Shown: piece after piece, positions 22,507-49,576 of the stretch
Layout of the letters: each line of letters opens with the position of its first letter
How positions within the stretch are numbered: the first letter of the stretch is position 1
Assembly: GCA_021736135.1 (NCBI GenBank)
Contig: JAIPGO010000001.1
Span: 64,228 to 128,227, forward strand
DNA from: Candidatus Cloacimonadota bacterium
Lineage (GTDB): Bacteria > Cloacimonadota > Cloacimonadia > Cloacimonadales > TCS61
Direction of reading: 5' to 3'
DNA: 64,000 nucleotides
Program-made: the position numbers and the translations under genes
The notes under the pieces: generated by a model
Databases searched by the model: none
The model's input: the letters and a program-made list of their open reading frames with translations, nothing else
Told to the model about the DNA's origin: nothing

Positions 22507-22537
22507 CGGGCTGCAGGGACTAAGTTCCTGCAGCCCG
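22507..22537 (-). promoter_or_regulatory. Intercistronic stem-loop between the two giant ORFs (no U-run)
   Basis: CGGGCTGCAGG (22507-22517) pairs with CCTGCAGCCCG (22527-22537). On the mRNA strand it is followed by ACAUUAAAAGGAGAAAAACAUG, the RBS and start of the 2170-aa gene. Confidence 0.5.
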
Positions 22538-25500: not shown

Positions 25501-28500
25501 GCCATTAACGGAAATCTGTGCTCCATCGGGATTGGAGGTATTGATCACGCGGAACCAGTATTCCCGCTGCTCTTCCGTTTCACTCAGGTTACCAAGCAGC
25601 ATTGTGAAACTCGCTGCTTCATCCGGAGAAACATTTACCTGGGCTGCCGGTGTGATATCCAGAGACGGCTGGTCTCGCATCTGCGTGCCATCTTCCCAGG
25701 GATTGCTCGAAGCTCCCGTTATGGTCTCAAATACGGGCGTCCCATAAGTCCCATCCCATTTCACATCAAGAGTAAAGCTGTCACCTATATCATCATCTGC
25801 CAGCACAAAGCCCACCGTATTGGAATGTGTGGTTGTTTCAGAACTGGATTCTCCCATTGTGATCTCGGTTCCGATCATAAAACCACCCACAACACCTACT
25901 CCATTCACTTCAATTCCGGCAGCAAAGGCTGTTTCTTCATTGATAAAGGTTTCAAACTGATATGATACCGTTTCGGATGTCTCTTCTGTTTCCGTATATT
26001 CATAAGTTGCTCCTGCATCAAATGACCTGTTCTCGATCAAACTGGCACTTTCTTTCAAATCATGGTTGGAGTCCACAAAACTCTGCCAGCGAGCCGCTGA
26101 TTCTTCATCTCCGATCAGTTCCAGAGAGGGGATCAGTGAATTCAATATATGATATTCGGAATAAAGGTAGTTTGTGGCAAATCCCTGGGGTGCGATGATA
26201 ATATCTGCATCCAGTGAAAGCACTCCGTCGGTAACATCAAGAATGTCCGTTATACCGTAAAGCAGGTTCATAGCTCCACCCATATAGAGATCGCCATCCT
26301 GACCCACGAAAGTGTTTTCCGCGCTGGTCTGGATCGCCTCCGTCGTGGAAATAGTCCAGGTTTGTTCCTGCTGACTGGAATTTGTGGTCGTCATTGCTGT
26401 GCTGTAATTAAAATCGAGCGTCACATCAACTGCTATTTCCGTTGATACTATGAACCCGATTTCTGTTGTAACATCTACTCCCAGATAGGCGTTGATGAAT
26501 TCTGAAGAATTATCATTATGGATCATGCTGATCCCAACGGACATGGAATGCGTTTCCGTGGTGGAAAGATAACTGTAACTGTGATCTCCGGGAGGATCGC
26601 GCAGGATCATGATCGGAATTTCCGGAGTCGTCGTGGTAAAGGCGGAAGTGCGGGGTTTATTACCCGTAACAATCGCCCACTCCGTGATCTGTGCCTGGCG
26701 ATCATAATTATCCGTGGCAATTACCGTAAACTGCTTTTGATAAGGATGATCACCTCCGGAAAGGATATTGGGTTCCCGCACCAGACAGCTATATTCGATA
26801 GCGCCATCAGTAAATACTGCCGTTGTATCAATATTATTGCCAAAATAATCCAGCACGCGCACATAACCTGAATCAACGGGACAGGTATTAATGACCGTCT
26901 CGCCTTCCAGCCACGTGCTGTATGATTCATATATCTCTATATCAAAAGTATAGTAATTATTCATTGTCAGCAGACCAACTCCAGAAATTTCCGATTCATC
27001 GGGCAGGGTGATCGTGCCTCCTTCGGGAATGCCGCTAACCGCCACATCCGGAGGAGCATAATAGATAAAGTCATACACTCTGTCCTCCTCTTCCAGGGAT
27101 AATGTTTCCGCATCAAAGAAAGCATCTATCTCGGGATTGGGATGATCTATCCAGATCTGGTATATAAATGGCGGCAGATCTTCTATTTTGTATTCACCCG
27201 TAACGGGATGCGGCACTACTGATTTTTCAATGCAACCGTTCACCGCCCGCACGGTAACTTCGATCTGACCCTGGGAAGGTGTGATCGGGAAACGGCAACT
27301 GCCTCCTGCAACTTTTCCTGTTATCTCCCGGAATTCCTGATCGGAAAAATAGAGCCCTGTTCTGGGTGAAGCTATGAGCGGTAATTCTATAAAGGGCGGA
27401 ATGAATTCATGCAGTTCAAATACCGGCTGGATAATATCTCCCGTACTTCCCGGCTCCAGCTCTATGATCCACTTGCCGTCTGCATCGGTATAGATCGGCG
27501 GAACAAGTGATACTCCATTTACCAGAATCTGAACTTCGTCCTGGAAACAGGCTGTGGATTCATAACGCACATAACCGCTGATCGGGATCATGGAAATATC
27601 CGTGAAATTGACCATATCGACTGATGTATTACTGGCATTCAGGCTTGCCTGACGGCTTTCCGGCTCATAATAATGCTCAAACATCTCGATCAGTGGTATA
27701 TCTTCGGTCCAGACTACTCCGTTTTCCAGAGTTCCAGTGGCAATATTGCCAGTAGCATCTGTAACCAGCAGATCTCCGCCTTCGTTCATTTTCCAGTAGT
27801 TCGCCAGACCATATTCATCACCTTCCAGAACCTGATTTTTTGTGCCATTGATCTGATCATAGTTGCGGCAGAGATTCCATAACCGCATTTCATCAATTCT
27901 GCCATTAAAGTAAAGATCATCTTCTTCCGGTGCTGCGCGACCCATAACTATTTCCGAAAGATCAGGAATAGTATTGGCATCAGCAGCTTCCTCTGCCAGT
28001 TGACCGTCTATGTATAATCTGAATGTCTCCTGATCATAACTCACGGCATAATGATGCCAGAGGTTATCTGCCATATTTTCCGAATTCTGCAGCTCAGTTG
28101 TGAAATGAGTTCCCCTGATATAACCTTCAGGAGTCATCTCCACTCTCAGACGCAATTCATCATTGGCAGGATCTGTTGCACTAAAAAGCACCTGTGCCTG
28201 GGTCTCGGCTGTTTTAAACCAGCCTTCCTGCGTATAGCCGAAAACCATGTCCACTCTCACTCCGTAAAAGCTTACAAATTGATCAGCGCCATTCAGCTCC
28301 AAAGCTCTGCCGATATTTGTCTGCTTGGAGGGAGTTACGGTAAAGGTTGTTCCTCCGCCATAATAAATTCCGCGGATGGCATAGTTGCCTACACTGTCCG
28401 TAAGCGCTCCCACGTAAACGGGAGCCAGATTGGGACTGCGTGTGATGTGACATATCTCTCCATCATTGTCATTTTGCGTAAGGTCAAAAACGATGTCTCC

Positions 28501-29709
28501 TTCCACTTCATCAAATTTCCAGTAAGCTGCCAGCCCCTCTTCATCGCCGGACAGTGTGATGTCCTGATATTTGCGCAGGTCTTCCCATTCCCGCGGTATG
28601 CTCCAGATACGAAAATCATCCATTCTGCCGTAATAGTAGTTCGTGGGATCCATGGGAGCAGATTTGCCTATCATGATTTCTGCCTGATCTGCTATGTAAC
28701 CGGTGGCTATTGCTTCGCCCACAATAAAACCATCCACATACATGGTCATTTCCAGGGTGTCAAACACGCAGGCTACATGATGCCAGCGCCCGTTGCCCCA
28801 TTCATCAAAACCGCTGTAGGGATTAACCGTGGTGATCTCCGTCCCGGTTATACCTGCGGCAGGATTATGTTCCCAGTGCAGATATCCGCCTTCCAGAAGT
28901 TCCAGCTTCAGATAGTGATCGACCGTGGATGAATCGACTGCGGCAAAAAGCGTCTGCACATGATCTGTATGCGTGGAGCGGAACCACGTTTCTATTGTAT
29001 AGCTTTCTTCCAGACCCACAAATAGCCGGTTAAGACTCGTCTCAGGATCTATGTAATAAACATAGGAATGCTCACCGGGACCAAAGAAGGCTGATCTCCC
29101 CAGGTTTGGCGTCAACATCACTTTCGTGTCTTCTACCGGATTACCGCTGGGTGTTTCCACATGTCCCGTTATCACGCCATTAGGATTCATAAATCCAATA
29201 TTATTCTCTTTATGGCTGGTTCCCATTTCGTTCGTGGAAACCACCCCATACTGATAATATTCTCCGGGAAAAACATTGAAATCCTGATAGTCCGTCTGCG
29301 ATACCGGCAAAGTGGATAAAACGTAACCATTCCGATACAGCACCACGTTAGCACCCGTTACCGGAGGGCCCGTGTGATCATCTTCAATTGTCCACTGCAC
29401 CAGCACCATATCCTGAAAATCGCCATCTGAGGCGCGCACAATGGGCGGACGCGGTTCTTTCATATAAAAAGACCAGAGACCTCCAACCATACTGTGTTGC
29501 GAATAGTTGGTCGCCTGCTGGATCATGGGCTGACCCACAGTCAGTTTCAGATTGAATAGCTGACTGTTTGTATTGCCCGTTGCTGCGGCATTATTTACCG
29601 TCATATAAGGTACCGAATAATTGGGCTCACAGGTTTGACCCCATACCGATACACTAAAGAAGATGATAAACAATCCGACAAGCAAGCTTCTAAAATGCTT
29701 CACTTTCAT
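22546..29709 (-). CDS. Giant T9SS-sorted surface protein (2387 aa) with two LamG/ConA-like domains, unassigned Ser/Thr-rich centre, GWNW repeats and two DECRGV modules
   Basis: Signal peptide MKVKHFRSLLVGLFIIFFSVSVWG. LamG-type blocks WHHVACVFD..MYVDG..GRMDDFRIWS and WHHYAVSYD..LYIDG..GRIDEMRLWN. DECRGV codons at 24019-24036 and 23062-23079. C-terminus LYPNPFNPELHIKY..GVYFLQI..LLMK. Confidence 0.9.
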   Translation of the reverse strand: MKVKHFRSLLVGLFIIFFSVSVWGQTCEPNYSVPYMTVNNAAATGNTNSQLFNLKLTVGQPMIQQATNYSQHSMVGGLWSFYMKEPRPPIVRASDGDFQDMVLVQWTIEDDHTGPPVTGANVVLYRNGYVLSTLPVSQTDYQDFNVFPGEYYQYGVVSTNEMGTSHKENNIGFMNPNGVITGHVETPSGNPVEDTKVMLTPNLGRSAFFGPGEHSYVYYIDPETSLNRLFVGLEESYTIETWFRSTHTDHVQTLFAAVDSSTVDHYLKLELLEGGYLHWEHNPAAGITGTEITTVNPYSGFDEWGNGRWHHVACVFDTLEMTMYVDGFIVGEAIATGYIADQAEIMIGKSAPMDPTNYYYGRMDDFRIWSIPREWEDLRKYQDITLSGDEEGLAAYWKFDEVEGDIVFDLTQNDNDGEICHITRSPNLAPVYVGALTDSVGNYAIRGIYYGGGTTFTVTPSKQTNIGRALELNGADQFVSFYGVRVDMVFGYTQEGWFKTAETQAQVLFSATDPANDELRLRVEMTPEGYIRGTHFTTELQNSENMADNLWHHYAVSYDQETFRLYIDGQLAEEAADANTIPDLSEIVMGRAAPEEDDLYFNGRIDEMRLWNLCRNYDQINGTKNQVLEGDEYGLANYWKMNEGGDLLVTDATGNIATGTLENGVVWTEDIPLIEMFEHYYEPESRQASLNASNTSVDMVNFTDISMIPISGYVRYESTACFQDEVQILVNGVSLVPPIYTDADGKWIIELEPGSTGDIIQPVFELHEFIPPFIELPLIASPRTGLYFSDQEFREITGKVAGGSCRFPITPSQGQIEVTVRAVNGCIEKSVVPHPVTGEYKIEDLPPFIYQIWIDHPNPEIDAFFDAETLSLEEEDRVYDFIYYAPPDVAVSGIPEGGTITLPDESEISGVGLLTMNNYYTFDIEIYESYSTWLEGETVINTCPVDSGYVRVLDYFGNNIDTTAVFTDGAIEYSCLVREPNILSGGDHPYQKQFTVIATDNYDRQAQITEWAIVTGNKPRTSAFTTTTPEIPIMILRDPPGDHSYSYLSTTETHSMSVGISMIHNDNSSEFINAYLGVDVTTEIGFIVSTEIAVDVTLDFNYSTAMTTTNSSQQEQTWTISTTEAIQTSAENTFVGQDGDLYMGGAMNLLYGITDILDVTDGVLSLDADIIIAPQGFATNYLYSEYHILNSLIPSLELIGDEESAARWQSFVDSNHDLKESASLIENRSFDAGATYEYTETEETSETVSYQFETFINEETAFAAGIEVNGVGVVGGFMIGTEITMGESSSETTTHSNTVGFVLADDDIGDSFTLDVKWDGTYGTPVFETITGASSNPWEDGTQMRDQPSLDITPAAQVNVSPDEAASFTMLLGNLSETEEQREYWFRVINTSNPDGAQISVNGIPIEDHLSYYIPYGEQVENILSIERGPVEYIYNNLQFMLVPPGQYAVWENGGPMELAAYAQVSVEFQQPASEVHIAVPQDNWLITSADEGDTLWVTMDGYNRFATNLVSIDLKYRPSTSGRGDSGGETPELSAAFGEEKKRQSDSVSSLFAEAQTNENNEEHSFDERTGEWFTAYSVLVENITEDYIIMPWNISPSIVVDGAYELRAITVSTGDSGDGYSNIVTGLIDREGPEIFGSPEPVDGILSPDDQIAIHFNENINGALISQGNQDIALFNTTTGQMVDFDFTFGFNTITVEPAVNNEWIENQTLRVDINVLEDMHGNSIAEPISWEFFVNRNPVEWLGESIHEVIYVDQTVQTSRILRNIGGSNRSYELIGGRDNGWPSGEPLPLPDWLEFSPIEGILTPGEERSISINLVDDAAAGQHNTTIYANAVMGDEPLIIDIRILDYPPEWSFDMTDFEFSMNMTAVLAVDNILSDDVYDIVGVFVDDECRGVGEISYIPTLENELGLHPYETFISIYSNQLEGEILSFRVWDASESTVLGNIVESYEFVANSVLGNPTAPVTITATNQVIKSVKINDGWNWLSFNLTKADMGINSFLESLTPTGNDMIKTQSSFAQFVEYYGWVGNMTQISTSTMYLLRMAEDDTLQITGYPVNVETDTLFVSPGWNWISYLPQYSMELNYALNSLDGLTTGDIIKSQAGFAQFVENMGWFGNMQFLQPNKGYLMRLTYPGELVYPFEIVPLAGMPEDIALSLYSESDLRAVQEDEPDWQVIPELYEYNMNIIAVVMQDGMEAANETDMIAAFYGDECRGVTTPVYLEAFDRNLVFMTVYGNVDEDISFNFKYFNSLTSQTYDLEETIDFAANDVFGSILEPYALHTLPLTDGDENLIPVLETRLQALYPNPFNPELHIKYSLSENTPVEIVMFNIKGQKVKTLVNETQESGWYHLSWTGDNDDHNPIASGVYFLQIKADGYQEMRKVLLMK

Positions 29710-29742: not shown

Positions 29743-32088
29743 TTACTTATTTTCCAGCGCTTCGATTCTAAGTATCAGCATCTCGATTGTTCTTTCCTGT
29801 TCCTCCACTATTTCATTCAGTTCCTGAATAGCAGCTATTGCTACAACACCAAATCCTGAATAATTCAAGGTCAATTCTTCGTCTTTTTCTCCTACCAGTT
29901 CAGGATATAGATCAGCAACTTCTTGTGCTATAAACCCAATACATTTCTCTTCACTGTCGTCCTGGGTTTTGTAATGGAACCTACTAGGCTTCAACTGCAT
30001 TACTTTTCCCAGATTGTCGCTTTCAACCTGTTCTATGTTTTTCTTAACACTGCGGTCTGACCAAGTATGGAAAGAACCATCCCCACAGTCAACGTAAGCT
30101 TTATTGCTTCCATTATACCTAAAGGAAAAATCATTATCAGTATACATAAATAATTGCCAGTTATCATATCCTCTATACCAATAATAACCTGTAAATCCTA
30201 AATCCTGTGAAGTAGTATTATTTGCCTTGAAAAACATATCACTATATATATATCCGGTAGAGTAGACACTGTTTGTCCCTGTAACATAACCAAAATTCGC
30301 GGCACTGCCTGTTATCCCTGAAGTTCTTATGTTTCCGTCACATTCGATTTGATCTTCCACATAAAGATCTCCTACACTTGTAGCATAATCTACCGAGGCA
30401 TTGCCATCCCATATGCGGACACTGTTTCCTCTAACATCCAGACATCCAGATGGCGAATAGTTATGCCCGATTGACACAGAGCTTAACTTACTCGCTGAAG
30501 ATGGATTTACTACATAACTGGGACTATCTAAATCCATCATTGATGAAGCATATAAATACCCCCCACATTCAAGAATATCTTCTACGAAAAGGTCTCCTGC
30601 ACCTGAGGCATAATTAACCGTGGCGCTGCCATCCCAAATCCTGACTTCGTCATTACGAACATCAAGTGATCCATAGTTTGTACCGCTAAAACCTAAACTA
30701 ATCGATTGCATACTGGAACTGCCTGCGGGATTTACAAAGTAATTTTGATTTTGAAGATCATAAACGGCACTACTGCTCAAAGTTCCACTTATATAAGCAT
30801 TGCCATCCAATTCCAATACGTCTTCCACGTAAAGGGCTGACTGACCATAGGCATAATCAACACTGGCGTTGCCATCCCAGATGCGCAATCCTCCATTGCG
30901 TATATCCAGAATATCCGCCGGATCATAATCATGACCAAGTGACAATCCTACCAGTTTAGAATTTCCTGCCGGATTAACGTACCAGTATGGACTATCAACA
31001 TCTTTAAAAGTAGTACCCTTTATTTCATTAGAAACCGTTACTGGAGAATTGGAAAGCAGGGGACCATAGAAATTGATCGTTCCGGTAGGTACAATACTTA
31101 ATCGGGTTGTTGAACCACTGATCAGATCAAGGTTTCCCGTTCCGTCTTCATCACTGTCTGCTGTGATCATGGCATTGCCAGAATTCGATAATGAACTGGC
31201 TGAACCACCCATATCTGCGCTGACCAGTGTGGAACCGTCATCAAACATGATCCCGCCATTACGCATCTTCAGATTACCATTTATATCCAGTGCTTGTGCT
31301 GGAGTATCCAGGTTTACTCCTATTTTCCCATCAGGTGCCACTACAAACTGACTCGAGCCGTCTTCATTTTCTATTAAAAGCTTATTGAGCTGCGGATCAG
31401 TAGCCACTATGTGCAAATCTGCTTCCGGGATTTCCACATTCACTCCCACCTGACTGCCAGCAGTTACTACGAACTTATTGGTACCGTCCGCTTCCTCGAT
31501 GATAATCTTATTTTCTGCTGCATCAGTTGCAACCACGTGCAGGTCAGCCTCTGGTGTCTCAACGTTAATACCTACTTTTCCTGCTTCTGTAACAACAACT
31601 GAATTTTCACCAGTTTCGCTTTCGATCAAGAGCTTATCGACACCAGCTTCGGAATCCACAATATGCAGATAGGCAGCCGGTTCATGAGTTCCTATTCCCA
31701 CATTTCCTACTGATGGAAATACGTTGTCAGTTCCAAATACGCTCATGGCTGAAGGCGATTTAGTGAGTTTAAAGCGCGGTTCCATTTCCACGCCTTCATT
31801 GACCGTGATCCCGATCCAGTAATGTTCATCAAAAGGAATCTGATCCAGAGGACTATTTACTCCCAGTTCCACTCCAAATACACCATTAGTAACCAGAACG
31901 CTGCCCTGGCTTTCTTCCCAGAATGCAGATCCGCCTGCTTCCTCATTGTAAAGCTTGAATAATAAATTGTAGTATCCGTCATCTACCGTCTTACCCAGGG
32001 GATCTCTCAATACACCCTGCACTGAAAATGTGTCTGCGCCTAATACGCATAATGCCAATACAAAAAATAACAAAATCGCTCTTTTCAT
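29743..32088 (-). CDS. Secreted tail-fibre-like protein with C-terminal peptidase S74 intramolecular-chaperone domain
   Basis: 781 aa. Signal peptide MKRAILLFFVLALCVLGA. Three ~40-aa repeats (..PEADLH(I/V)VATD..) at 31285-31707. Three ~77-aa repeats (..VNPAG..L(D)(I/V)R..(L/V)RIWDG(N/S)A(S/T)V(D/N)YA..L(Y/F)VED..) at 30319-31005. C-terminus WSDRSVKKNIEQVE..IGFIAQEV..LNYSGF plus coiled coil, with Ser677 (30058-30060) and Lys682 (30043-30045) spaced as in endosialidase/tail-spike autocleavage dyads. AAGGAG RBS. Confidence 0.85.
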   Translation of the reverse strand: MKRAILLFFVLALCVLGADTFSVQGVLRDPLGKTVDDGYYNLLFKLYNEEAGGSAFWEESQGSVLVTNGVFGVELGVNSPLDQIPFDEHYWIGITVNEGVEMEPRFKLTKSPSAMSVFGTDNVFPSVGNVGIGTHEPAAYLHIVDSEAGVDKLLIESETGENSVVVTEAGKVGINVETPEADLHVVATDAAENKIIIEEADGTNKFVVTAGSQVGVNVEIPEADLHIVATDPQLNKLLIENEDGSSQFVVAPDGKIGVNLDTPAQALDINGNLKMRNGGIMFDDGSTLVSADMGGSASSLSNSGNAMITADSDEDGTGNLDLISGSTTRLSIVPTGTINFYGPLLSNSPVTVSNEIKGTTFKDVDSPYWYVNPAGNSKLVGLSLGHDYDPADILDIRNGGLRIWDGNASVDYAYGQSALYVEDVLELDGNAYISGTLSSSAVYDLQNQNYFVNPAGSSSMQSISLGFSGTNYGSLDVRNDEVRIWDGSATVNYASGAGDLFVEDILECGGYLYASSMMDLDSPSYVVNPSSASKLSSVSIGHNYSPSGCLDVRGNSVRIWDGNASVDYATSVGDLYVEDQIECDGNIRTSGITGSAANFGYVTGTNSVYSTGYIYSDMFFKANNTTSQDLGFTGYYWYRGYDNWQLFMYTDNDFSFRYNGSNKAYVDCGDGSFHTWSDRSVKKNIEQVESDNLGKVMQLKPSRFHYKTQDDSEEKCIGFIAQEVADLYPELVGEKDEELTLNYSGFGVVAIAAIQELNEIVEEQERTIEMLILRIEALENK

Positions 32089-32113: not shown

Positions 32114-32383
32114 TTACTTGGGTTTATCTATACATTTTTTGTTACAGACCGACTGGTAAGTATCTATGATTGCCTGATGAAGGCAGGATATCTCCTGCTG
32201 CGTTATTTGACGATTACCATTCTCATATTCCCGGGCTATATTATATATCTGCTCATCTTGAAGCACTATCGTGAAACAGAACATTTTCCGCCATTGATTG
32301 CTGATCTCGACGATGTCACTGATTTCGCATATTTGCGTTACGCTGATACTCTCGTTTTCTGAAATTCTAATCAAATCATTCAA
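32114..32383 (-). CDS. Hypothetical small protein (89 aa, TTG start), first ORF after the sigma54-type promoter
   Basis: The ORF in the track begins with TTG (32381-32383) after AGGGG. No signal peptide and no motif. 25 nt upstream of the tail-fibre-like gene. Coding status is uncertain. Confidence 0.35.
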   Translation of the reverse strand: MNDLIRISENESISVTQICEISDIVEISNQWRKMFCFTIVLQDEQIYNIAREYENGNRQITQQEISCLHQAIIDTYQSVCNKKCIDKPK

Positions 32384-32416
32384 TTCTAACCCCTGGTAAT
32401 TTCTGAGTTCTATTCA

Positions 32417-32431
32417 GCAATTTGAATACCA
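32417..32431 (-). promoter_or_regulatory. Sigma54-type -24/-12 promoter
   Basis: The minus strand reads TGGTATTCAAATTGC(T). GG-N10-GC spacing is identical to the TGGCAC-N5-TTGC consensus. It lies about 33 nt upstream of ORF 32383 and downstream of a sigma54 activator gene. Confidence 0.55.
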
Positions 32432-32518
32432 AACGGAAACAAAATTATTACAAGAAGCTATCTTATTATTAATATTATATTTATAGAATAGTATTCAATT
32501 GTTGTCTTCAGGAATAGA

Positions 32519-32565
32519 CTATAGCAATTTGGAATACACTTCCATTTTGCTATAGCAATTTGGAA
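32519..32565. promoter_or_regulatory. Two exact 16-bp direct repeats (candidate upstream activator sites)
   Basis: CTATAGCAATTTGGAA occurs at 32519-32534 and 32550-32565, 31 bp apart. The repeats are embedded in dyads TGGAATACACTTCCA and TTCCATTTTGCTATAGCAATTTGGAA. They lie ~90-135 bp upstream of the -24 element. Confidence 0.5.
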
Positions 32566-32589: not shown

Positions 32590-34686
32590 CTATCCTTGAT
32601 TCATCTGTTTCAGCTTGCGGTTCAATGTTGAATATGAAATTCCCAATATCCTGGCTGTCTTGCTGTGATTATTACCGGTTCTATCCAAAGTTCCAAGGAT
32701 CATTTCTCTTTCCATTTCTTCTAAAGTTGTAATATCCATTCCGGTAGTCTGCGTACTTAATACCGGAGCAGATCTGAGATTGAAACATTCCGCAGAAAGA
32801 GTATCGGTTCTCAGCATTATCATTGCTCTTTCCACCATATTCCTCAATTCCCGAACATTACCGGGGAAAGAATAGTTTTCTAATTGTTCCATAACATCCA
32901 GCGCTATTTTAGGTAATGGTTTTTTTAGAGCCTGGGCATACTCCGAGATAAAAAAGTGTACTAGCGGCTCGATATCCGATTTTCTCTCCCGTAAAGGTGG
33001 AATATATATTTCTATAGTATTGATGCGGTAGAAAAGATCAACCCGGAAAATATTATCCTCTATCAACTGGTTAATGTCCTTATTAGTAGCTGCGATCAAA
33101 CGGAAATCTATCTGCATTTCTTTGCTGGAGCCAATGGGCTTGATTTTTTTACTTTCCAGTACACGCAGTAGTTTTGCCTGCAGAGAAGCAGGCATATCAC
33201 CAATCTCATCCAGGAATAAAGTGCCTTTATCTGCTTCTTCCAGATAGCCGGTTTTATCTGCCAGAGCTCCAGTAAAAGATCCTTTCTTATGTCCGAAAAA
33301 TTCACTCTCCATCAATGTTTCCGGTATGGAACTACAATTTACCGGAATAATCATGCTGTCTTTACGATTACTTGCAAAATGAATGATGTGTGCAATTATC
33401 TCTTTGCCGGTACCGCTTTCTCCTGTGATCAATACGTTAGTATCCTGATGCTGTGCCGCTTTCATTGCCAGTTCATGCACTTCCTTGATCGCATTGCTCC
33501 TGCCAATGAGGTTCATACTCATCTGCTTCTTGAGCACTTCGGATATCAGAGAACTTTTCCTCTGTGTGTTTACCAGTTGCTTTTTAGCATCTTCATATTT
33601 CTTTTGAAGATTAGATATTTTTTCTATTACTTCCGAATTCAGTCTCTTATCTTTCAGTTCGGAATATTTCTCGAAATTCATTAAAGATTTCTCAAAATTC
33701 TGCTGTGCCTTATAAACCTTGCTCAATAGGTGATAAATCTCTTCCACTTCCTGCACCAGATTCATCTTGAGCGCGTCTTTCAGGCTTGTTTTCAGATATT
33801 TCAGCGCTTCCCTGAAATTCTGCTGCTTAAAATATACCGTTCCAATATGTTTTAAATAAAACGTCCGGTTTTTGTTGATCTCACTTTCCCTGATCAGCTC
33901 CAGAGCTTCCTGATAATATTCCAGGGCTTGGTCCAGTTCTTCCCGGTCTTCATATACCCCGCCGATATTGTTCTTAACTATTGCCAGAATATGCGTCAGT
34001 CCGCTTTCTTCCACGTAAGGCAGCGCTTCCAGGTAATATTCCAGGGTTTTTTCCGTATCCTCTTCATTGTAGGATACACCCAGATTTATCAGTGCTTTAA
34101 AAATACTGTTCACATCATTCTGCTCTTTTGCCATTTTTAAAGCCAGCCGGGTATATTCCCGCGATTTCTCCTGCTGCTTCAATATCCCGTATAGAATCCC
34201 TATTTGCTCATGAACTCCGATATAACCGCGCAAAAGTATCTTCTTCGGTTGTTTTTCGATCTTTATCTGTTTCTGCATCAGATCTTTTGCCTGAAATAAT
34301 AGCTCCAGAGCTTCATCGATCCTGCCCTGATTGCGATATGCCCCCCCCAAACTCACATAACAGAAAGATTGCCCCTCCAAATTTCCCAATTCTTCATAAA
34401 GTTCTAATGACTTACGGGCACTTTCTTCGGTTTTGGCATAATCCGGTTTAAATGAATATACACGACTCAGAAAATCATAACAATTCGCTGTTTTCAGCTT
34501 ATTGCCAGCCTGTGTGAAGAGCAGGATCAACTCTTCAACATAAGGTATTGACTGCAAAACATCTTCCGTATGCGAATAAGTACCAACCAGCGCTTCCAGT
34601 ACTGGAATTAATTCTTCTTTATTCCCTTTTTTTCTAATTGAATCCAATTCATTTTCTAATTGCCTGATACTTTTGCTGCCATCCAT
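32590..34686 (-). CDS. Sigma54-dependent transcriptional activator (bEBP) with N-terminal TPR-repeat sensor region
   Basis: 698 aa. The N-terminal ~370 aa are TPR-like repeats plus coiled coil. AAA+ sigma54-interaction domain: Walker A GESGTGKE, GSFTGA at the GAFTGA loop, LFLDEIGDM, RVDLFYRIN. C-terminal Fis-type HTH HSKTARILGISYSTLNRKLK. Confidence 0.9.
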   Translation of the reverse strand: MDGSKSIRQLENELDSIRKKGNKEELIPVLEALVGTYSHTEDVLQSIPYVEELILLFTQAGNKLKTANCYDFLSRVYSFKPDYAKTEESARKSLELYEELGNLEGQSFCYVSLGGAYRNQGRIDEALELLFQAKDLMQKQIKIEKQPKKILLRGYIGVHEQIGILYGILKQQEKSREYTRLALKMAKEQNDVNSIFKALINLGVSYNEEDTEKTLEYYLEALPYVEESGLTHILAIVKNNIGGVYEDREELDQALEYYQEALELIRESEINKNRTFYLKHIGTVYFKQQNFREALKYLKTSLKDALKMNLVQEVEEIYHLLSKVYKAQQNFEKSLMNFEKYSELKDKRLNSEVIEKISNLQKKYEDAKKQLVNTQRKSSLISEVLKKQMSMNLIGRSNAIKEVHELAMKAAQHQDTNVLITGESGTGKEIIAHIIHFASNRKDSMIIPVNCSSIPETLMESEFFGHKKGSFTGALADKTGYLEEADKGTLFLDEIGDMPASLQAKLLRVLESKKIKPIGSSKEMQIDFRLIAATNKDINQLIEDNIFRVDLFYRINTIEIYIPPLRERKSDIEPLVHFFISEYAQALKKPLPKIALDVMEQLENYSFPGNVRELRNMVERAMIMLRTDTLSAECFNLRSAPVLSTQTTGMDITTLEEMEREMILGTLDRTGNNHSKTARILGISYSTLNRKLKQMNQG

Positions 34687-34698: not shown

Positions 34699-36246
34699 CT
34701 ATTTCAATAACAATAATTTTCCTGATATCTGCCCGGAACCGGAACTGAGCCTGTAAATATATAATCCGCTGGCGGCTTCTTGCTGCTGTTCATCTTCTCC
34801 CTGCCAGTTGTATTCATAAAATCCCTTTTCCAGAGCGCTGTTTAAAAGCGTCTGCACCCGTTGCCCGCGGCTGTTGAAAATTTCCAGTTTTACTTCCCCT
34901 GCCTGCTGCACTTGGAAGGAGATAGTTGTGCAGGGATTAAACGGATTGGGATAGCAGATAACTTCACTTATTCCCGTCAAGTCTCCATCAGTCCCCACCA
35001 CCGGCGACATTACTATCTCCTCATAAACATTAGCATCCGCAATCTCAAAATCTCCCGTTACACCGATGTATAAGCTGTGGCTCACCATATAGCCATAAAT
35101 GCCATTTGCCAGATCAAAGGAAAAGCTCCCGTCGCCCATGGAATACTCGTAAAGAGGATCGCCGCCTGCTGCCGGGATCACCATCAATTGTGCGTTTATC
35201 ACTGGCTCGGCATTCTGGTTATACACATAGCCATAAAACTGTCCCCCTATGCCGCCAATTGGTTCTAAAACGACTTCCCGGTAAACATCTCCCCCGTCTA
35301 TTTCCACGGTATCCGTCAATATTCCATAGCCGATTGCGGTAACGGTATAATCATAAATCCCGTCTGACAGCGATATTGAAAAAGCCCCCACAGAATCGGA
35401 GACAAAGAAATAAGGTATGCTCGAATTGGGGTTATCCAGCATAAAACCCGCATTAGCAATTAACTCTCCCTCAGGATCGGTCACTATCCCGTAAAAATCC
35501 CCATCCGGAAAGTAATACATGAAATCTATTCCTGTCTCATGACCATTTACCGTTATTTCCTGAATTGCCGGTGGTATGAATCCGCCGTTGATATCCAGCA
35601 GACTGTAAACGCCGGTCATGCATACCACATCAGGTATATCTTCCGGCACAAAAATCTGATAATCTCCTAAAAAGCCCGTTAAATCACTCAATATGTAATG
35701 ATCAGAAGCAATGAAGGCTAAAAAAGTCTCCAGATCAAAATTGTTCAATAATTCCATCAATACGTCTATCCCGCCGTTATATATAGTGTAAACCAATCCA
35801 CCCATCACGGGCAGATCTATCCAGCTCCCTTCCTGCAATACGTTGCCGGAGATACTGTAATTAGTATTTAACTGCTCGAACTGAATACTGACCATGTCAG
35901 AAATATCCTCATCAGTCAAGGTCACAGTCAGGGTCGTGCCTTCCGGTAATTGGATGAAATTGGCAAAACCACCGGCAAAAGCGCCGTCTAATCCCGTCTC
36001 ATCAAGCATCCCGCCATCCTGAAATAAGAGATAATTCCCGGAAAAAATCGGTATTTCCTGCCCTAATATCTCCACCCCAAAGGCAAAATCAGCAGCATTA
36101 CCTTCAACTTCAAACTCGAATTCAAAATACATCGAATCACCTATGGCAATTGTTGTGCTGGTTGCACCATTAACCGTAAAATTATGAACTGCCGCCAGAG
36201 GAATAAATGATACAAGTAATAAAAGTAATAACAATTTTATCTTCAT
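34699..36246 (-). CDS. Secreted T9SS-sorted protein with carboxypeptidase-regulatory-like (Ig-like) repeats
   Basis: Signal peptide MKIKLLLLLLLVSFIPLAA. Repeats GIVTDPEGELIANAGFML.. and GYVYNQNAEPVINAQLMV... C-terminus CYPNPFNPCTTISFQ..GLYIYRL..LLLK. ATG 36246 is preferred over the GTG at 36261. The stop lies 12 nt from the activator gene start. Confidence 0.8.
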   Translation of the reverse strand: MKIKLLLLLLLVSFIPLAAVHNFTVNGATSTTIAIGDSMYFEFEFEVEGNAADFAFGVEILGQEIPIFSGNYLLFQDGGMLDETGLDGAFAGGFANFIQLPEGTTLTVTLTDEDISDMVSIQFEQLNTNYSISGNVLQEGSWIDLPVMGGLVYTIYNGGIDVLMELLNNFDLETFLAFIASDHYILSDLTGFLGDYQIFVPEDIPDVVCMTGVYSLLDINGGFIPPAIQEITVNGHETGIDFMYYFPDGDFYGIVTDPEGELIANAGFMLDNPNSSIPYFFVSDSVGAFSISLSDGIYDYTVTAIGYGILTDTVEIDGGDVYREVVLEPIGGIGGQFYGYVYNQNAEPVINAQLMVIPAAGGDPLYEYSMGDGSFSFDLANGIYGYMVSHSLYIGVTGDFEIADANVYEEIVMSPVVGTDGDLTGISEVICYPNPFNPCTTISFQVQQAGEVKLEIFNSRGQRVQTLLNSALEKGFYEYNWQGEDEQQQEAASGLYIYRLSSGSGQISGKLLLLK

Positions 36247-37285
36247 AATATAGCTCCACACTTTTTCTCTTCAATTTATTAACCTTTTAATAAATCTGTA
36301 AATCAATGTCAAGATTAACTCTTGCTGTCATCCTCCTTCCCCTGAATTTCTATTTCCTTTCGGACATAATATCAAAGAGGAGGGAAGCAACATTGGATGC
36401 CAGAAACAAGCGGTTATATGTGAAATCCCATAGTACAAAATGGGTTAACCCATATTGTGCAGTATAAATTTGCGAATAGCAGTAAGCTTTGGGCGCAGAG
36501 AGAGTTAGATTATTTTCATAAATATTTAATCGGTGAACAGTGAACAGTGATGGGTAAATCCAACTGAAGATAAGATATTACTACTCTTCATCAAATCCTA
36601 ACCTGGACAAGCCAGAACCAAAGAAAAGATTATTAACCACGGACGTCACCGGACAGCACGGATAATGTAAGAAAAGAACGGATTTATTCTGGCATTATTT
36701 TCGTCAGTGGGGTCGGTGGTTGAAAATCTTTTCTGCCCAAAACTGGATATTGGTTATTGGCAGAGGAACAAAGTCAGCCATTGCGGAGGTCTGGCGACAT
36801 TCGCAAGGTTTTGACCAAATATTCTGCCAAAAATTGACAGAATATTTTTGTAAGGTACTCCGGGCAAGACTTTGGGGCGTCGAATACTTACTCGGCATCG
36901 TTTAATTAATTTCCTGACAGTATTTTAGTCGCTCAAAAGTCTTGTCCTGAGTACAGTCCAAAACTCTTGGCTTAAATTGGATATCGTCTTCTTCAAAGAA
37001 CAATCATTAGTTTTCGCACAGCCTCCAAAATGGGTTAAATATTACTAAAACAATAGTTCTAATTGAGGACGATAAATGACAAAAACAATTTATTACCAAT
37101 ATGAACCCACAGCATTCCCACAGCATCCTCTAATTATGGGCAGAAAGGATATATATATTATACTGAAATAAGAAGTTAAGTTAAGAATTACAGAAAAATT
37201 ACAGGAAATAACCTGAAAAACGGATACGGAGAATGAATTGATAGAAAAAGGAATGAACGTTATAAATAATTATCTTTGATGTTGG

Positions 37286-37316
37286 AAAATATTCCGGCTT
37301 CCGAAAAAGCCGGAAT
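37286..37316 (-). terminator. Rho-independent terminator after the DUF4249-like gene
   Basis: ATTCCGGCTT (37291-37300) pairs with AAGCCGGAAT (37307-37316). The minus-strand RNA continues AUUUUCC. Confidence 0.55.
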
Positions 37317-37371
37317 AATATTTATAGGACCATTATGAATTCTCTGAAACGGTTACTGCTCCTGAGCGATA

Positions 37372-38316
37372 CTAACGGGTGATCCTGGTAAAGTAATCTT
37401 CTCCGGTGACGGAGCCGAAATATCCTATACCTCCGTGAATGCCGCCATGCAGGTAGCTTTCGGAATGATAGTGATAGGTATAGTAATTCTGGTCAACGAT
37501 GTAGATTGTGAGGCGGTATTGTCCGTAATAACTGAAACCGATGGCATAAAAGTCATCGAGCCGGTACCAGTTTCCTTCATCATCCTGCCCGGGTTCATAG
37601 CGCCAGGACATATTCACTTCCCGGAGATTATTGCTCATTACGCTATAGTATGCTTCTTCATCTTCTTCTTCGAGGTGGGTGAAGTTCATAAAGGGAATAG
37701 TATATTCGAGAGAAGTGGAAAATTCCTCCAGGCAGTAGAAATTATAGGAAGTATAGAGAATAGCATCGCTATTCAAGGCAAAATAAATGGGAAAGTCATT
37801 ATTGACATTATCATAAGGGATGGCAGGCAGATCAGGTGAAAATTCATCTGCAAAGCCATATTCGGGTGTGGCAAGTCCATTATAGTCAATATTGATCTCC
37901 ACCGTTTCCGGAACTGTGGTTTCCGCCCAGGCGAAAACATCCTGTGAATCAAGGATGGCATGCACTTCGATGCGATAGGTTGTTGCCGGTTCGATGGTGA
38001 CTTCTTCCGACTGATAGCCGAATAAGAGATTGTCAATATCAATAGCAAAAGATAGGGCAAAAGTATCCTGAGCAACATGATTGATATCTAATTTCATCAG
38101 TTTCACCTCCGCATTTGTGATGAGAATATCGTCCATCGTGCCGCCATCGGCAGAAATTGTTCTGCCAACGAATATGGGGTGTTGGATGGAAACAGTTTTT
38201 CCTGCTATCAGATAGCCGGAAACAACCAGACTTTCCTTTTCATATCTCTGGGGCGCAGTAAGTTCGCAACCGCTGAGTAGTAATATTATCGCTGTTAAGA
38301 TAATTATTTTTTTCAT
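37372..38316 (-). CDS. DUF4249-like lipoprotein (partner of TonB-dependent receptor)
   Basis: Lipoprotein signal MKKIIILTAIILLLSGC. AGGAGG RBS before ATG 38316. Sits directly downstream of a TonB-dependent receptor, which is the usual context of DUF4249 genes (recalled). Confidence 0.6.
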   Translation of the reverse strand: MKKIIILTAIILLLSGCELTAPQRYEKESLVVSGYLIAGKTVSIQHPIFVGRTISADGGTMDDILITNAEVKLMKLDINHVAQDTFALSFAIDIDNLLFGYQSEEVTIEPATTYRIEVHAILDSQDVFAWAETTVPETVEINIDYNGLATPEYGFADEFSPDLPAIPYDNVNNDFPIYFALNSDAILYTSYNFYCLEEFSTSLEYTIPFMNFTHLEEEDEEAYYSVMSNNLREVNMSWRYEPGQDDEGNWYRLDDFYAIGFSYYGQYRLTIYIVDQNYYTYHYHSESYLHGGIHGGIGYFGSVTGEDYFTRITR

Positions 38317-38324
38317 TATACCTC

Positions 38325-40664
38325 CTACCATTTCACCGAAACACCGAACATCATGATAAAGGGTAGTTCCGTGAAATCTTCCGTTTTAATACTCAGTTTG
38401 CCGTCTTCATCACTTTCGACGTCATAGTTGCGGCTGTTCACATTTTTATTCCCGGTAACATTAATTGCTTCAATATAAGGCTGCACTTCCCCCCAGTAAG
38501 TATTGAGTTTCCACTTCAGGCTAAGATCAATGCGGAAATAGGCAGGAAGCCGCACTCTATCCTTATAACTATAAAGTATGTTAATATGATCACCATCGAA
38601 ATAGACCATTTCGGGTTTAGCAGTGGGTTGTCCGGTTTTATAGGTCACGTTTAAGCCTATGGAAGGATCTCCTTTCCCAAGGCGGAAATCAAATACATCG
38701 TGCAGATGAAGGTTTTCCATCATGGTCAGTTGCTGAGTGCGGTCATAACGCGGATAAAAGTATTCTGCCAGACCTGTTTCAGGATTTGTGTTGGATCCAT
38801 TCATTTTGCGGCGGGTAATTCCCAGCGAATAACCGAGAAATCCTGAAATCCCGTGCCAGTCTGTACGTAATAATATATCCCCCCCCCAGGAATAGCCATC
38901 GCCCTTAAGCAGAACATCGGAAAGACTGGAATCTTCGTTATCCCAGGAATAAAAGGCATTATCATTTTGTTCGACCAGGTTGGCATAATCTTTATAATAG
39001 ATATCACTGTCCAGAGCCAGATGACTGCCGAACTCCTTTTTATAGCCCAGAATATAATGATCGCAATAACCTGGTTCCGTACTGCCGTCGATGGGAAACC
39101 AGATATCCATGGGAGTGTTTATGCCTCCGGAAACCATAACCAGGTACTGATAGTATCTACCTAGAGCGATATAGACATTAGAAGAATGATCAATGATACG
39201 TCTAATGGCAAGACGAGGTGAAAGATCAAGGCATTCCTGAGTGGGAGCAACTTCAGGTTTCACGTGCAACAAGCGATAATAATTCAGTCGTAATCCCGGT
39301 TCTATGTTCCAGAAAGGAGATGGCTGCCAGTAATCCTGCACATAAACGGAATTAATCAGACTTCTGCCTTCTATATCGTAAAGACTGCTGGGATCATACT
39401 GCAGATCGCTAACTTCTTTGAAATTAACCTGCATATATTTTATTTCCAGTCCCCAGTCAAGGCGGTTTTCACCGGAATAACGGCGACTGAACCGACTTTT
39501 AAACGTGAGATCTTTGATACTGTTATCCCAGTCATAGAGTGTGGTCTCTTCTTCTTTGATACGGAATTTGCAGTCAAATCCGCTGCCACCTAAGATGAAG
39601 CTGCCAAATAATCCATTCTCCCAGATGCGTGTATTCATGAGAGTAAAAGTAGTATTACCCCAACTGATATTCATCTGATCCATAATGTCCAGAGTGAGAT
39701 CATCACGTCCATTATAGAAACTGAGACTGTATTTATTGGTGGGTGTAACGTCCCAGTTCAGACGGGCATGCCCGTCATAAAAATAGTATTCGGGAATATC
39801 ATCCATAAATTTAGCGATCAGGTCAAAATAACTACGACGGAAAGAGCCCATATAGGAAGAGTTTCCTTTATCTATTGGTCCTTCCAGAGTAGCAGCTGCC
39901 GAGATAAAGCTCCAGTGAGCCACTCCCTGATGAAATTTACGGTTTCCTTCGCGGTTATTAATGCTGAGCACGGAAGACATTCTGCCGCCATAAAGAGCCG
40001 GGTAACCGCCTTTCATAAGTTCCACCGTGCTGATGGCATCCGTATTGAACGTACTGAAAATGCCGCCGAAATGGGAGGGGTTATAAACGTCAATATCGTC
40101 CAGCAGAATAAGGTTCTGGTCATAAGTGCCTCCCCAGATATAGAGTCCGCTGGAGTAATCGGAAACAGAAGAAACGCCTGGCAGCACCTGTATAGAGCGG
40201 ATAATATCGCCTTCGCCGAACTGGGAAACTTCCAGGATCTGCTCGGCTGAACTAAGCACATTACCGGGTCTGATCTCAGGGGTATTTGCCTTAAATTCGC
40301 GTTTAACCCGCATTTCGCGTACTTCGCTGCCTTCGATTTCCACGGCGTCCTTTTCCAGGTCAACATTGAGAATGCGGCTTTCCAGCAAGTCATTGAATTC
40401 GAGAGTGAATTTTTGCGTTTTATATGACATGAGACTGAATTGCAGAACATTTTCTCCTGTTTCAGAGATGGCAATATTATAAAAACCTTTGGAATTTGAC
40501 TGGACGCCGGTATTTTGCCCCAGTAATAACACAGTGGCATAGGATAGAGGTTCACCGGTACTATTGCACCTGATGATACCGCTTACAGTAGCTGCCGGAG
40601 ATATAATCCAGCAACATAACAATATAACGATGCTAAAAGCTTTCATTTCGGGGGAAACGGGCAT
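38325..40664 (-). CDS. TonB-dependent receptor with N-terminal carboxypeptidase-regulatory-like domain
   Basis: VSGIIRCNSTGEPLSYATVLLLG. Plug domain (LPGVSSVSD..LILLDDIDVYN..MKGGYPALYGGRMSSVL). Long beta-barrel ending FGVSVKW. An AAGGAG RBS favours ATG 40664 over the track start 40748. Confidence 0.85.
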   Translation of the reverse strand: MPVSPEMKAFSIVILLCCWIISPAATVSGIIRCNSTGEPLSYATVLLLGQNTGVQSNSKGFYNIAISETGENVLQFSLMSYKTQKFTLEFNDLLESRILNVDLEKDAVEIEGSEVREMRVKREFKANTPEIRPGNVLSSAEQILEVSQFGEGDIIRSIQVLPGVSSVSDYSSGLYIWGGTYDQNLILLDDIDVYNPSHFGGIFSTFNTDAISTVELMKGGYPALYGGRMSSVLSINNREGNRKFHQGVAHWSFISAAATLEGPIDKGNSSYMGSFRRSYFDLIAKFMDDIPEYYFYDGHARLNWDVTPTNKYSLSFYNGRDDLTLDIMDQMNISWGNTTFTLMNTRIWENGLFGSFILGGSGFDCKFRIKEEETTLYDWDNSIKDLTFKSRFSRRYSGENRLDWGLEIKYMQVNFKEVSDLQYDPSSLYDIEGRSLINSVYVQDYWQPSPFWNIEPGLRLNYYRLLHVKPEVAPTQECLDLSPRLAIRRIIDHSSNVYIALGRYYQYLVMVSGGINTPMDIWFPIDGSTEPGYCDHYILGYKKEFGSHLALDSDIYYKDYANLVEQNDNAFYSWDNEDSSLSDVLLKGDGYSWGGDILLRTDWHGISGFLGYSLGITRRKMNGSNTNPETGLAEYFYPRYDRTQQLTMMENLHLHDVFDFRLGKGDPSIGLNVTYKTGQPTAKPEMVYFDGDHINILYSYKDRVRLPAYFRIDLSLKWKLNTYWGEVQPYIEAINVTGNKNVNSRNYDVESDEDGKLSIKTEDFTELPFIMMFGVSVKW

Positions 40665-40834
40665 AATATTTACTCCTTTGGTAAGATTACAATGGTCAAT
40701 AAAAAAAAATGTTTCTTCTTGACAAGAAATAATAGAGTCATAATTCAAATTGTTATTAATAATATGAATTTAGAGATGTAATTCATTTGACAAAAATCTG
40801 GTAAAGTTTCATTTTAAATACAGGGAGTATTGTT

Positions 40835-48150: not shown

Positions 48151-48268
48151 TTCACCTTCCAAGAAAAAAAAATCACATTTTTTCCATTTTTTTTGCGTGG
48201 TGTTGTCACACTTACGCTTTTTTGTGGACTATATATATAGAAACAAGAAAATTTCTAAAGGAGCCAAG

Positions 48269-48529
48269 ATGAAAAAAGTATTTAGTATTTTTATAGCCCT
48301 TGTTATCACTCTATCTATTTTTGCAGGTCCTATAATATCAGTAACCGATTATTCGTCAAGTAATAAATCAGAACAGGAAATAAAAGACCTTGTTGCCCAA
48401 AGTGTAGGAGTTATTTCTCTGGAAAGTTTACAGGACACAGAATATATATTTATTGCTGTCACGAATGATGACTGGATCATTGTAGAAATTGATGGCAACA
48501 TCTACATCTATCCCCCAGAAGAAGAATAA
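48269..48529 (+). CDS. Small secreted protein (86 aa)
   Basis: AAGGAG RBS. Signal peptide MKKVFSIFIALVITLSIFAG. A terminator follows. Confidence 0.5.
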   Translation: MKKVFSIFIALVITLSIFAGPIISVTDYSSSNKSEQEIKDLVAQSVGVISLESLQDTEYIFIAVTNDDWIIVEIDGNIYIYPPEEE

Positions 48530-48558
48530 AAGAGTCTCAATAGCCAATTAATTATAAA

Positions 48559-48593
48559 ATAGGAGGTCGGGGCTGACCTCCTATCCCTTTTTT
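48559..48593 (+). terminator. Rho-independent terminator
   Basis: ATAGGAGGTC (48559-48568) pairs with GACCTCCTAT (48575-48584), followed by CCCTTTTTT. Confidence 0.7.
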
Positions 48594-49454: not shown

Positions 49455-49561
49455 TTATCCACACAAATAATTACGTTATGTGGATAAGTGGAAAATTTAG
49501 CTTTATATGTTTAAAATCAAAAGAGTTATGTATTATTCACCTGTAGTATTTATGTGGATAA
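49455..49561. promoter_or_regulatory. DnaA-box cluster upstream of dnaA (oriC / dnaA autoregulatory region)
   Basis: Perfect TTATCCACA at 49455-49463, and its complement TGTGGATAA at 49479-49487 and 49553-49561. Near-consensus TTATTCACC at 49533-49541. Preceded by ~850 bp of very AT-rich non-coding DNA. Confidence 0.8.
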
Positions 49562-49576
49562 CACAAGAAGGAAATT

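Follow-up and report, generated by a model that had tools for sequence, protein, structure and literature searches.

Background

At the glnAp2 promoter of Escherichia coli and Salmonella, a -24/-12 element of the TGGCAC-N5-TTGCA class is activated by looping from NtrC sites at about -140 and -108, and nif promoters carry the upstream activator sequence (UAS) of NifA, TGT-N10-ACA, about 100-150 bp upstream of -24/-12. In the standard sigma-54 geometry, transcription starts about 12 nt downstream of the GC. The genes of the type IX secretion machinery of Porphyromonas gingivalis are under PorX/PorY/SigP, a two-component system together with an extracytoplasmic function (ECF) sigma factor. Here we describe positions 32417-32565 of a 64-kb stretch of DNA from a Candidatus Cloacimonadota bacterium (64,000 nucleotides, "the window"), which, on the strength of comparative sequence analysis, is likely to hold a sigma-54-dependent promoter with upstream activator sites; the gene of the presumed activator ends 25 bp further upstream.

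Large surface and secreted proteins of the Cloacimonadota, among them type IX cargo and dockerin/cohesin-like systems, have already been described (PMC8542988); the Stygibacter genome paper treats surface proteins and not their regulation (PMC8542988). Literature searches returned nothing on sigma-54 in Cloacimonadota, full-text searches no paper tying sigma-54 to type IX secretion cargo or to this phylum, and no characterised sigma-54 circuit was found that combines a tetratricopeptide repeat (TPR) sensor, a small first-gene product and a link to type IX cargo.

A predicted promoter element and a palindrome kept at fixed spacing

The module and the two genes that flank it comprise the following features.

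32431-32417, minus strand: sigma-54 type -24/-12 element TGGTATTCAAATTGC, with GG at 32430-32429 and GC at 32418-32417
32405, minus strand: predicted transcription start, placed by standard sigma-54 geometry 12 nt past the C of the GC; 5' untranslated region of about 22 nt
32540-32565: UAS site 1 (predicted enhancer), a 26-bp palindrome, TTCCAAATTGC-TATA-GCAAAATGGAA when read on the minus strand from 32565 to 32540
32519-32534: UAS site 2 (predicted), second exact copy of a 16-nt repeat, TTCCAAATTGCTATAG on the minus strand
32432-32518: AT-rich enhancer-promoter spacer, 76% A+T from site 1 to the -24 element
32390-32393, minus strand: GGGG resembling a Shine-Dalgarno sequence, 6 nt ahead of the small gene's TTG
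32114-32383, minus strand: gene of 89 amino acids (aa) with TTG start, first gene of the unit, encoding a cytoplasmic protein of an unannotated, lineage-restricted family
32590-34686, minus strand: activator gene (698 aa), a bacterial enhancer-binding protein, presumed cognate

Direct reading of the minus strand from 32431 to 32417 gives the GG-N10-GC spacing that the initial annotation of this region had reported. Extended by one base (TGGTATTCAAATTGCT, 32431-32416), the element agrees with TGGCAC-N5-TTGCW at 9 of 12 consensus positions, and the 10 bp between GG and GC are exact. It is intergenic and correctly oriented, the C of its GC lying 34 nt ahead of the TTG codon at which the 89-aa gene starts, and the GGGG in between. 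A dyad-symmetric site about 80-150 bp 5' of the -24/-12 element, as would mark an enhancer, is present: the palindrome, centred at 32552.5 and thus at about -148 from the predicted start, is separated from the GG by 123 bp, and a further half-site by 92 bp.

Five orthologous loci, the window and four others obtained by protein search and contig look-up (L061, L063, L065 and L069), were compared. Other Cloacimonadota, Candidatus Stygibacter among them, have full-length relatives of the activator at 54-65% identity; a scan of genome contigs for the activator gave distant relatives only (at most 51% identity, in the AAA+/helix-turn-helix part) and no orthologous locus.

Window: -24/-12 element TGGTATTCAAATTGCT; palindrome centre to GG 123 bp; activator stop to module 25 bp
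L061: -24/-12 element TGGTACACGGATTGCA; palindrome centre to GG 126 bp; activator stop to module about 735 bp
L063: -24/-12 element TGGAACTGCGATTGCA; palindrome centre to GG 125 bp; activator stop 3.5 kb away, with four opposite-strand genes between
L065: -24/-12 element TGGAACTGGGATTGCA; palindrome centre to GG 124 bp; activator stop to module 4.9 kb
L069: -24/-12 element TGGAACCTTAATTGCA; palindrome centre to GG 126 bp; activator stop to module about 110 bp

All five loci (5/5) carry TGG-N8-TTGC(A/T) before the small gene, the C of the GC lying 26-38 nt from its start and a purine-rich ribosome-binding site in between, and all five carry a palindrome with the invariant core TGCTATAGCA 123-126 bp upstream of the GG. 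Each locus has a single copy of this core, as has the whole 64 kb of the window. When aligned, the five upstream regions share just two long invariant runs, CAnnnTGCTATAGCAAAAnG and TGGnA-N5-ATTGC, that is, the TGG, the A at the fifth position and the ATTGC are the same in 5/5 regions, and elsewhere single columns are scattered; the spacers of the orthologues are 74-79% A+T and unconserved in sequence. Behind these two DNA blocks, a homologue of the 89-aa open reading frame (ORF) is found in every locus that reaches far enough, and in every locus with context an orthologue of the activator lies 0.03-4.9 kb upstream of the module. The distance from palindrome to GG is kept even where the activator gene is 3.5-4.9 kb off (L063 and L065), and because it is independent of the end of the activator gene, the palindrome is not merely the terminator of that gene.

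The geometry of an upstream activator site and a promoter, which the initial annotation had called classical, is thus borne out by a palindrome and a -24/-12 element at fixed spacing in five loci. That annotation had named the absence of motif and repeats from orthologous loci as a refutation; on comparison, element and palindrome are kept in 5/5, and the second direct repeat is specific to the window. As judged from the alignment, then, the conserved enhancer is the palindrome and not the pair of direct repeats. Over metagenome contigs, the pattern TGCTATAGCA-N(112-123)-TGG-N8-TTGC gave more than 120 matches, none of them accompanied by a small-protein homologue in tblastn; we therefore regard these matches as due to chance and uninformative.

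The same architecture in paralogous cassettes

Behind five remoter TPR activators (40-54% identity) the order is repeated: activator gene, gap of 0.2-0.9 kb, GG-N10-GC element, gene for a small-protein paralogue. The upstream sites and elements of these cassettes are as follows.

L070 (activator P0005, same assembly as the orthologous activator P0003): CTGCATAATGCAG, twice; -24/-12 element TGGAACTTCAATTGCA
L071 (P0010): GTCATTTTGATCG, twice; -24/-12 element TGGCATTATGTATGCA
L072 (P0020): inverted repeat with 20-nt arms, 123 bp from GG; -24/-12 element TGGCGCAGTTAATGCG
L073 (P0013): TAGTTCAAAATGAACTA, twice (full palindromes), 33 bp apart; -24/-12 element TGGCATCCAGATTGCA
L074 (P0034): CTATTCAAAAGTGAATAG; -24/-12 element TGGCTCTGTTCATGCG

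Counting five orthologous and five paralogous cassettes, the small gene starts 26-43 nt downstream of a GG-N10-GC element in 10/10; for L074, the distance from the C of the GC is 41 nt with the in-frame ATG at 9016, which we counted, and 17 nt with the annotated start. Exactly one TGG-N8-(A/T)TGC is present within 400 nt upstream of the small gene in 8/8 loci scanned in this way, and two further loci have one match each in the interval from activator to small gene. Purine tracts (GGTGGGAG, GGTGGAG, GGTGGTG and AGGTGGTG) precede the small gene in L063, L065, L069, L070 and L072, and the encoded proteins measure about 80-115 aa across the cassettes.

The dyads or repeats of the paralogous cassettes lie 107-139 bp from the GG, and all five are distinct from the TGCTATAGCA type. 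The recognition helix of the activators' helix-turn-helix (HTH) reads GISYSTL(N/I)RK in the orthologues and GIHYTTLS, GISYSTIQ, GISYSTFK, GISYSKIQ and GISYSTIK in the paralogues. A constant promoter type combined with an upstream site that changes along with the activator is the pattern to be expected if each activator reads its own enhancer. Sequence identities of activator and small protein fall together from cassette to cassette, consistent with a duplication of whole cassettes.

Two further observations concern the orthologous loci. A perfect palindrome, CTATGTCATTTTGACATAG, abuts the conserved enhancer in L063 (7412-7430) and L065 (9796-9814) and resembles repeats beside paralogous activators (GTCATTTTGATCG in L071, GTTCATTTTGAA in L072); cross-regulation by a second activator is possible. 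In the same two loci, decayed fragments of a second cassette lie 3' of the small gene (L063, 7880-8240; L065, 10260-10910): a short ORF like the 72-aa protein of L061, a P0005-like piece of the N-terminus of a TPR activator (LELSRELDDNKEESYCL), and the C-terminus of a paralogous small protein (NAEIRTLHSVIRNKFDQYINQ) like that of L070, which together suggest recombination or decay between paralogous cassettes.

The direct repeats of the window

Exactly two copies of CTATAGCAATTTGGAA are present in the window, at 32519-32534 and 32550-32565 of the plus strand and 31 bp apart from start to start, as the initial annotation had it; in first-order Markov simulations of the 206-bp intergenic region, an exact direct repeat of 16 nt arose in 2 of 20,000 runs. 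Equally correct was its placement of the repeats 25 bp behind the activator gene, the first repeat base lying 24-25 nt past the TAG stop (32592-32590). Its further statement that each copy sits inside a dyad applies to one copy alone. The activator-proximal repeat (32550-32565) forms the right half of the 26-bp palindrome, within which a third copy of CTATAGCAATTTGGAA, inverted and matching at 14 of 16 positions, occupies 32540-32555. The copy at 32519-32534 (site 2) is a lone half-site whose own dyad partner is absent (5/11).

On the minus strand, the order is thus palindrome (32565-32540), 5 nt, half-site (32534-32519), which sets site 2 about 31 bp, or three helical turns, nearer to the promoter than site 1 and centres it at about -117. 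The full palindromes of L073, paired at a distance of about three helical turns, support a functional reading of this extra half-site. The -12 region (32416-32424) shares a 9-mer, AGCAATTTG (CAAATTGCT on the minus strand), with both repeats (32523-32531 and 32554-32562), and the likeness extends to TTCAAATTGCTGAATAG in the -12 region against TTCCAAATTGCTATAG in the repeat; it is specific to the window because the -12 flank of the orthologues is ATTGCATTA.

The activator and its operon

As the initial annotation had stated, the gene upstream encodes a sigma-54 enhancer-binding protein with a Fis-type HTH, confirmed by matches to Sigma54_activat (E 5e-66) and HTH_8 (E 3.7e-13). A TPR region (about residues 1-350) is followed by the AAA+ sigma-54 interaction domain (393-560), the lid AAA_lid_14 and the HTH (654-694). 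The protein has the full equipment of an AAA+ sigma-54 activator, with interaction domain, HTH, Walker A (GESGTGKE) and Walker B (GTLFLDEIG) motifs and the sigma-54 contact loop GSFTGA, one conservative change away from the GAFTGA that the orthologue P0003 retains.

The activator gene is preceded by the following features.

34699-36261, minus strand: 520-aa gene with CarboxypepD_reg domains and a type IX secretion sorting domain, directly 5' of the activator gene with a 12-nt gap; its true start is likely the ATG at 36246
36307-36312, minus strand: TTGACA, a sigma-70 type -35 element 5' of the gene pair
37372-38331, minus strand: gene for a DUF4249 protein
38325-40748, minus strand: gene for a TonB-dependent receptor-like protein

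L061, L063 and L065 keep the gene pair, a type IX secreted protein of 516-520 aa next to the activator; in L064, just 5' of the activator, there is only an unannotated 83-aa fragment. The genes 3' of the activator vary between loci. Upstream of the 516-520 aa partner gene a AAACTTGACA / ATCTTGACA motif recurs in 4/4 loci (MAFFT set the TTGACA copy of L063 out of register, and its alignment has no conserved column block), and no conserved -24/-12 element was found upstream of the pair in the four loci. From the recurrent TTGACA and the lack of a conserved -24/-12 element, the activator operon looks sigma-70 driven and not autoregulated. Sigma-54 autoregulation was considered for TGGCATCCAATGTTGC of the window (36403-36388) and rejected, its spacer being one base too long and the site unconserved.

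The intergenic region 5' of the activator operon (36262-37371, minus strand) is unusually long at 1.1 kb and holds two copies of TTAACCCATTTTG, at about 37036 and 36447. L061, L063 and L065, which instead have a flavodoxin gene upstream, conserve neither this pair nor TGGCATCCAATGTTGC.

A small gene as first target and the genes behind it

The 89-aa protein is 43-48% identical to the proteins at the same position in L061, L063, L065 and L069, with 28 invariant residues, and the family shares the motifs ISENES, FCFT, REYE and LH. Among 1.84 billion representative proteins, relatives are confined to 24 clusters at E <= 1e-3, all of 76-131 aa; the protein has no Pfam or NCBIfam match, and a search of metagenome contigs with the family alignment found nothing. 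Its AlphaFold model (predicted local distance difference test, pLDDT, of 69.6, a moderate confidence) has six strands and a C-terminal helix, and a Foldseek search of the PDB returned nothing significant, the best match being PH/PTB-like at E 0.1.

Behind the small gene follows a run of large genes.

29743-32088, minus strand: 781-aa gene for a secreted fibre-like protein with signal peptide and a C-terminal Peptidase_S74 intramolecular chaperone domain
22546-29709, minus strand: 2387-aa gene for a surface protein that has a pair of Laminin_G_3 domains and, at its C-terminus, a type IX secretion sorting domain
22508-22536, minus strand: GC-rich hairpin GGGCTGCAGG-N9-CCTGCAGCCC between the 2387-aa and 2170-aa genes, strong and without U-tract
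15975-22487, minus strand: 2170-aa gene for a cadherin/Big_9/dockerin protein with a type IX secretion sorting domain

The 781-aa gene starts 25 nt past the small gene and the 2387-aa gene 33 nt past the 781-aa gene, each with a GGAG ribosome-binding site and neither gap with a hairpin. The hairpin at 22508-22536 is the only obvious structure in this 16-kb run of same-strand genes. As the gap before it holds no hairpin, the 781-aa gene would be co-transcribed with the small gene; both it and the 2387-aa gene probably are. At the hairpin the transcription unit probably ends or is attenuated, and read-through past it may reach the 2170-aa gene. In 5/10 cassettes (window, L065, L072, L073 and L074) the small gene is followed by genes for type IX secretion cargo.

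The initial annotation had suggested that the activator directly controls the large surface-protein genes. It had missed the 89-aa gene, and by our comparison the first and only conserved target of the predicted promoter is this small gene, with the large genes following at gaps of 25 and 33 nt and their co-transcription deduced from gene arrangement.

Weighing alternative explanations

Several observations speak against a sigma-54 promoter with activator sites at 32417-32565. TGG-N8-TTGC has 7 matches in the window against 8.85 expected, so that the motif alone is at chance level, and the window element is the weakest of the ten related promoters (TGGTAT and TTGCT against TGGnAC and TTGCA elsewhere). 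In a leave-one-out scan with a position weight matrix (PWM) built from seven related promoters, the window's own site excluded, and applied to about 128,000 positions, the site ranks 20th; the best match, TGGCACAGGGTTTGCA (15386-15401, plus strand), is inside a coding region, and outside ORFs of at least 150 aa the site comes second to one (2483-2498) that lacks the GC. Taken singly, the site does not stand out statistically from background, and the PWM scan that the initial annotation had put forward as a check fails to set it apart. With the motif count at chance level and a PWM rank of 20, motif scoring cannot settle the question of the promoter. The copy of the repeat at site 2 is unaligned and unconserved in the orthologues, that is, window-specific, and might instead pair with the inverted copy in a hairpin at the 3' end of the activator mRNA. 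The consensus WATCARNNNNTTR of integration host factor (IHF), a looping aid, was not found in the spacers of window or orthologues. Nor was rpoN found among the ORFs of the window, or an RpoN box in 1.8 Mb of fetched loci; its presence is implied only, by the many activators of the phylum with intact GAFTGA-type loops.

A first alternative is that the -24/-12 match arose by chance and the repeats form a stem-loop ending or stabilising the activator mRNA, with 32555-32540 pairing with 32534-32519. Motif frequency and PWM rank agree with this, and RNA folding of 32595-32500 yields -26.1 kcal/mol (z = -3.95) and a 16-bp stem 35-71 nt past the stop. However, the stem is AU-rich, no U-tract or T-run follows it and the terminator scan makes no call; moreover, palindrome and GG-N10-GC remain 123-126 bp apart where the activator is 0.7-4.9 kb off and other genes lie between, and the promoter element is found at the same distance from the small gene in 10/10 cassettes. 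We consider chance and stem-loop together very improbable, and intrinsic termination at the repeats was rejected on two grounds: the missing U-tract, and a conserved spacing that it leaves unexplained where the activator gene is distant. Scans of the repeat/promoter region found neither a canonical terminator nor an above-chance sigma-70 promoter, and an Rfam scan of the whole window matched no RNA family. The copy at 32519-32534 may nevertheless have a hairpin role in addition. Alternatively, the sigma-54 promoter may be real and the palindrome read by some other DNA-binding protein, an activator paralogue or a repressor. Cloacimonadota genomes hold several paralogous TPR activators (P0003 and P0005 in one assembly, P0013 and P0036 on one contig), and the palindrome CTATGTCATTTTGACATAG that abuts the enhancer in L063 and L065 is like sites near such paralogues. 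Against another reader stand the linkage of the orthologous activator to the TGCTATAGCA-type palindrome in 5/5 loci, the distinct dyad that each paralogue has behind it, and a position about 125 bp upstream of the -24 element, which is enhancer-like and not operator-like; we think it improbable.

The extent of the unit can be disputed independently of its promoter, which might serve the 89-aa gene only, leaving the 781-, 2387- and 2170-aa genes to promoters of their own and outside the control of the activator. Nothing but the small gene is conserved 3' of the promoter: in L061 it is followed by two short ORFs, a 0.6-kb gap and a Trypsin_2 gene, and in L071 by BrkB and TetR. The longer unit would, furthermore, exceed 9.8 kb. 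Yet the short gaps of 25 and 33 nt, each with its GGAG and free of hairpins, the position of the first strong hairpin only after the 2387-aa gene, and the type IX cargo genes behind the small gene in half of the ten cassettes make a promoter for the small gene alone rather unlikely.

Proposed mechanism and significance

For a sigma-54 promoter driven from the palindrome, the following course of events can be proposed. The TPR-AAA+-HTH activator (32590-34686) would be made constitutively from the sigma-70-type promoter (TTGACA), together with the 520-aa type IX secreted protein. Its dimers would bind the 26-bp palindrome at about -148 through the C-terminal Fis-type HTH and, in the genome of the window only, also the extra half-site at about -117, three helical turns nearer to the promoter. 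A signal received through the N-terminal TPR region would let the AAA+ domains assemble into an active ring; the 76% A+T spacer would loop, and the GSFTGA loop would meet sigma-54 RNA polymerase waiting in a closed complex on TGGTAT-N5-TTGC (32431-32417). ATP hydrolysis would then open the promoter, with transcription from near 32405 through the 89-aa gene (32383-32114) and probably on through the 781-aa and 2387-aa genes to the hairpin at 22536-22508.

More tentatively, and with less than even probability, the promoter may belong to an insulated cassette that is specific to Cloacimonadota and has been duplicated repeatedly, and in which the small protein partners the TPR region of the activator. 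The order of such a cassette may be a sigma-70-driven pair of CarboxypepD_reg protein and TPR activator, followed by a private enhancer with a sigma-54 promoter, and then a novel protein of about 80-115 aa and genes for type IX cargo or adhesins. By analogy with PspA and PspF, the small protein may act as a feedback anti-activator or a co-activator. If this is true, each cassette would switch a different set of surface proteins.

A sigma-54 promoter with an enhancer is a classical textbook architecture and therefore no surprise to the specialist; what is new is the recurrent cassette of TPR activator, small protein and type IX cargo. The locus offers a first concrete and testable cis-regulatory map for an uncultured phylum, naming a specific activator, its probable DNA site, a promoter and a first target gene, in a design that recurs with private sites in paralogous cassettes. 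This opens regulon prediction across whole Cloacimonadota genomes and singles out a small protein family without annotation as one of the likely parts of the circuit.

Other features of the window

The best PWM match, TGGCACAGGGTTTGCA, lies within the ORF at 15334-15903, in the part of an LTXXQ (Spy/CpxP-like) gene that encodes the signal peptide, just downstream of the gene for an ECF sigma factor (14084-14605) and two small ORFs; chance probably accounts for the match, with an internal promoter as the alternative. A type II restriction-modification pair occupies 11192-13539 of the plus strand; its 525-aa N6/N4 DNA methyltransferase overlaps a 258-aa restriction endonuclease of the TdeIII family (E 6e-86). 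The replication origin of the chromosome probably falls within the window: dnaA (49577-50923, plus strand) is preceded by 1.4 kb (48163-49576) without an ORF of at least 150 aa. On the minus strand, 4779-9545 encodes a gingipain-like C25 peptidase of 1588 aa that carries a type IX sorting domain; this peptidase and the 2170-aa dockerin protein match the dockerin/C-terminal-domain surface systems of Candidatus Stygibacter (PMC8542988).

Comparison with known systems

The closest analogue in geometry is glnAp2 with its NtrC sites. Both have two sites about three helical turns apart (about -148 and -117 in the window) and an AAA+ activator with a C-terminal Fis-type HTH. In contrast to NtrC with its phosphorylatable receiver domain, the activator of the window has an N-terminal TPR region; the second site of the window is an unconserved half-site; and the predicted targets, a novel small protein with surface and secreted proteins, have no part in nitrogen assimilation and are known here from sequence alone. 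The NifA UAS is alike in being a single dyad enhancer at a fairly fixed distance, with the activator gene linked to its targets. It differs from the site of the window family, TTCCAnnTTGC-TATA-GCAAnnTGGAA, whose spacer contains no IHF consensus and whose activator carries a TPR sensor in place of GAF.

PspF-PspA and HrpS-HrpV are comparable by analogy only, in that the first operon product of the window is a small cytoplasmic protein that diverges along with the activator paralogue, the pattern expected of an activator feedback partner; this protein has no sequence or fold similarity to theirs, and its interaction with the activator is here pure hypothesis. With PorX/PorY/SigP the locus would have in common the control of type IX-linked genes within the Fibrobacteres-Chlorobi-Bacteroidetes group. 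Whereas that two-component system and its sigma factor act on the secretion machinery, the window would place a sigma-54 activator in linkage with the cargo genes.

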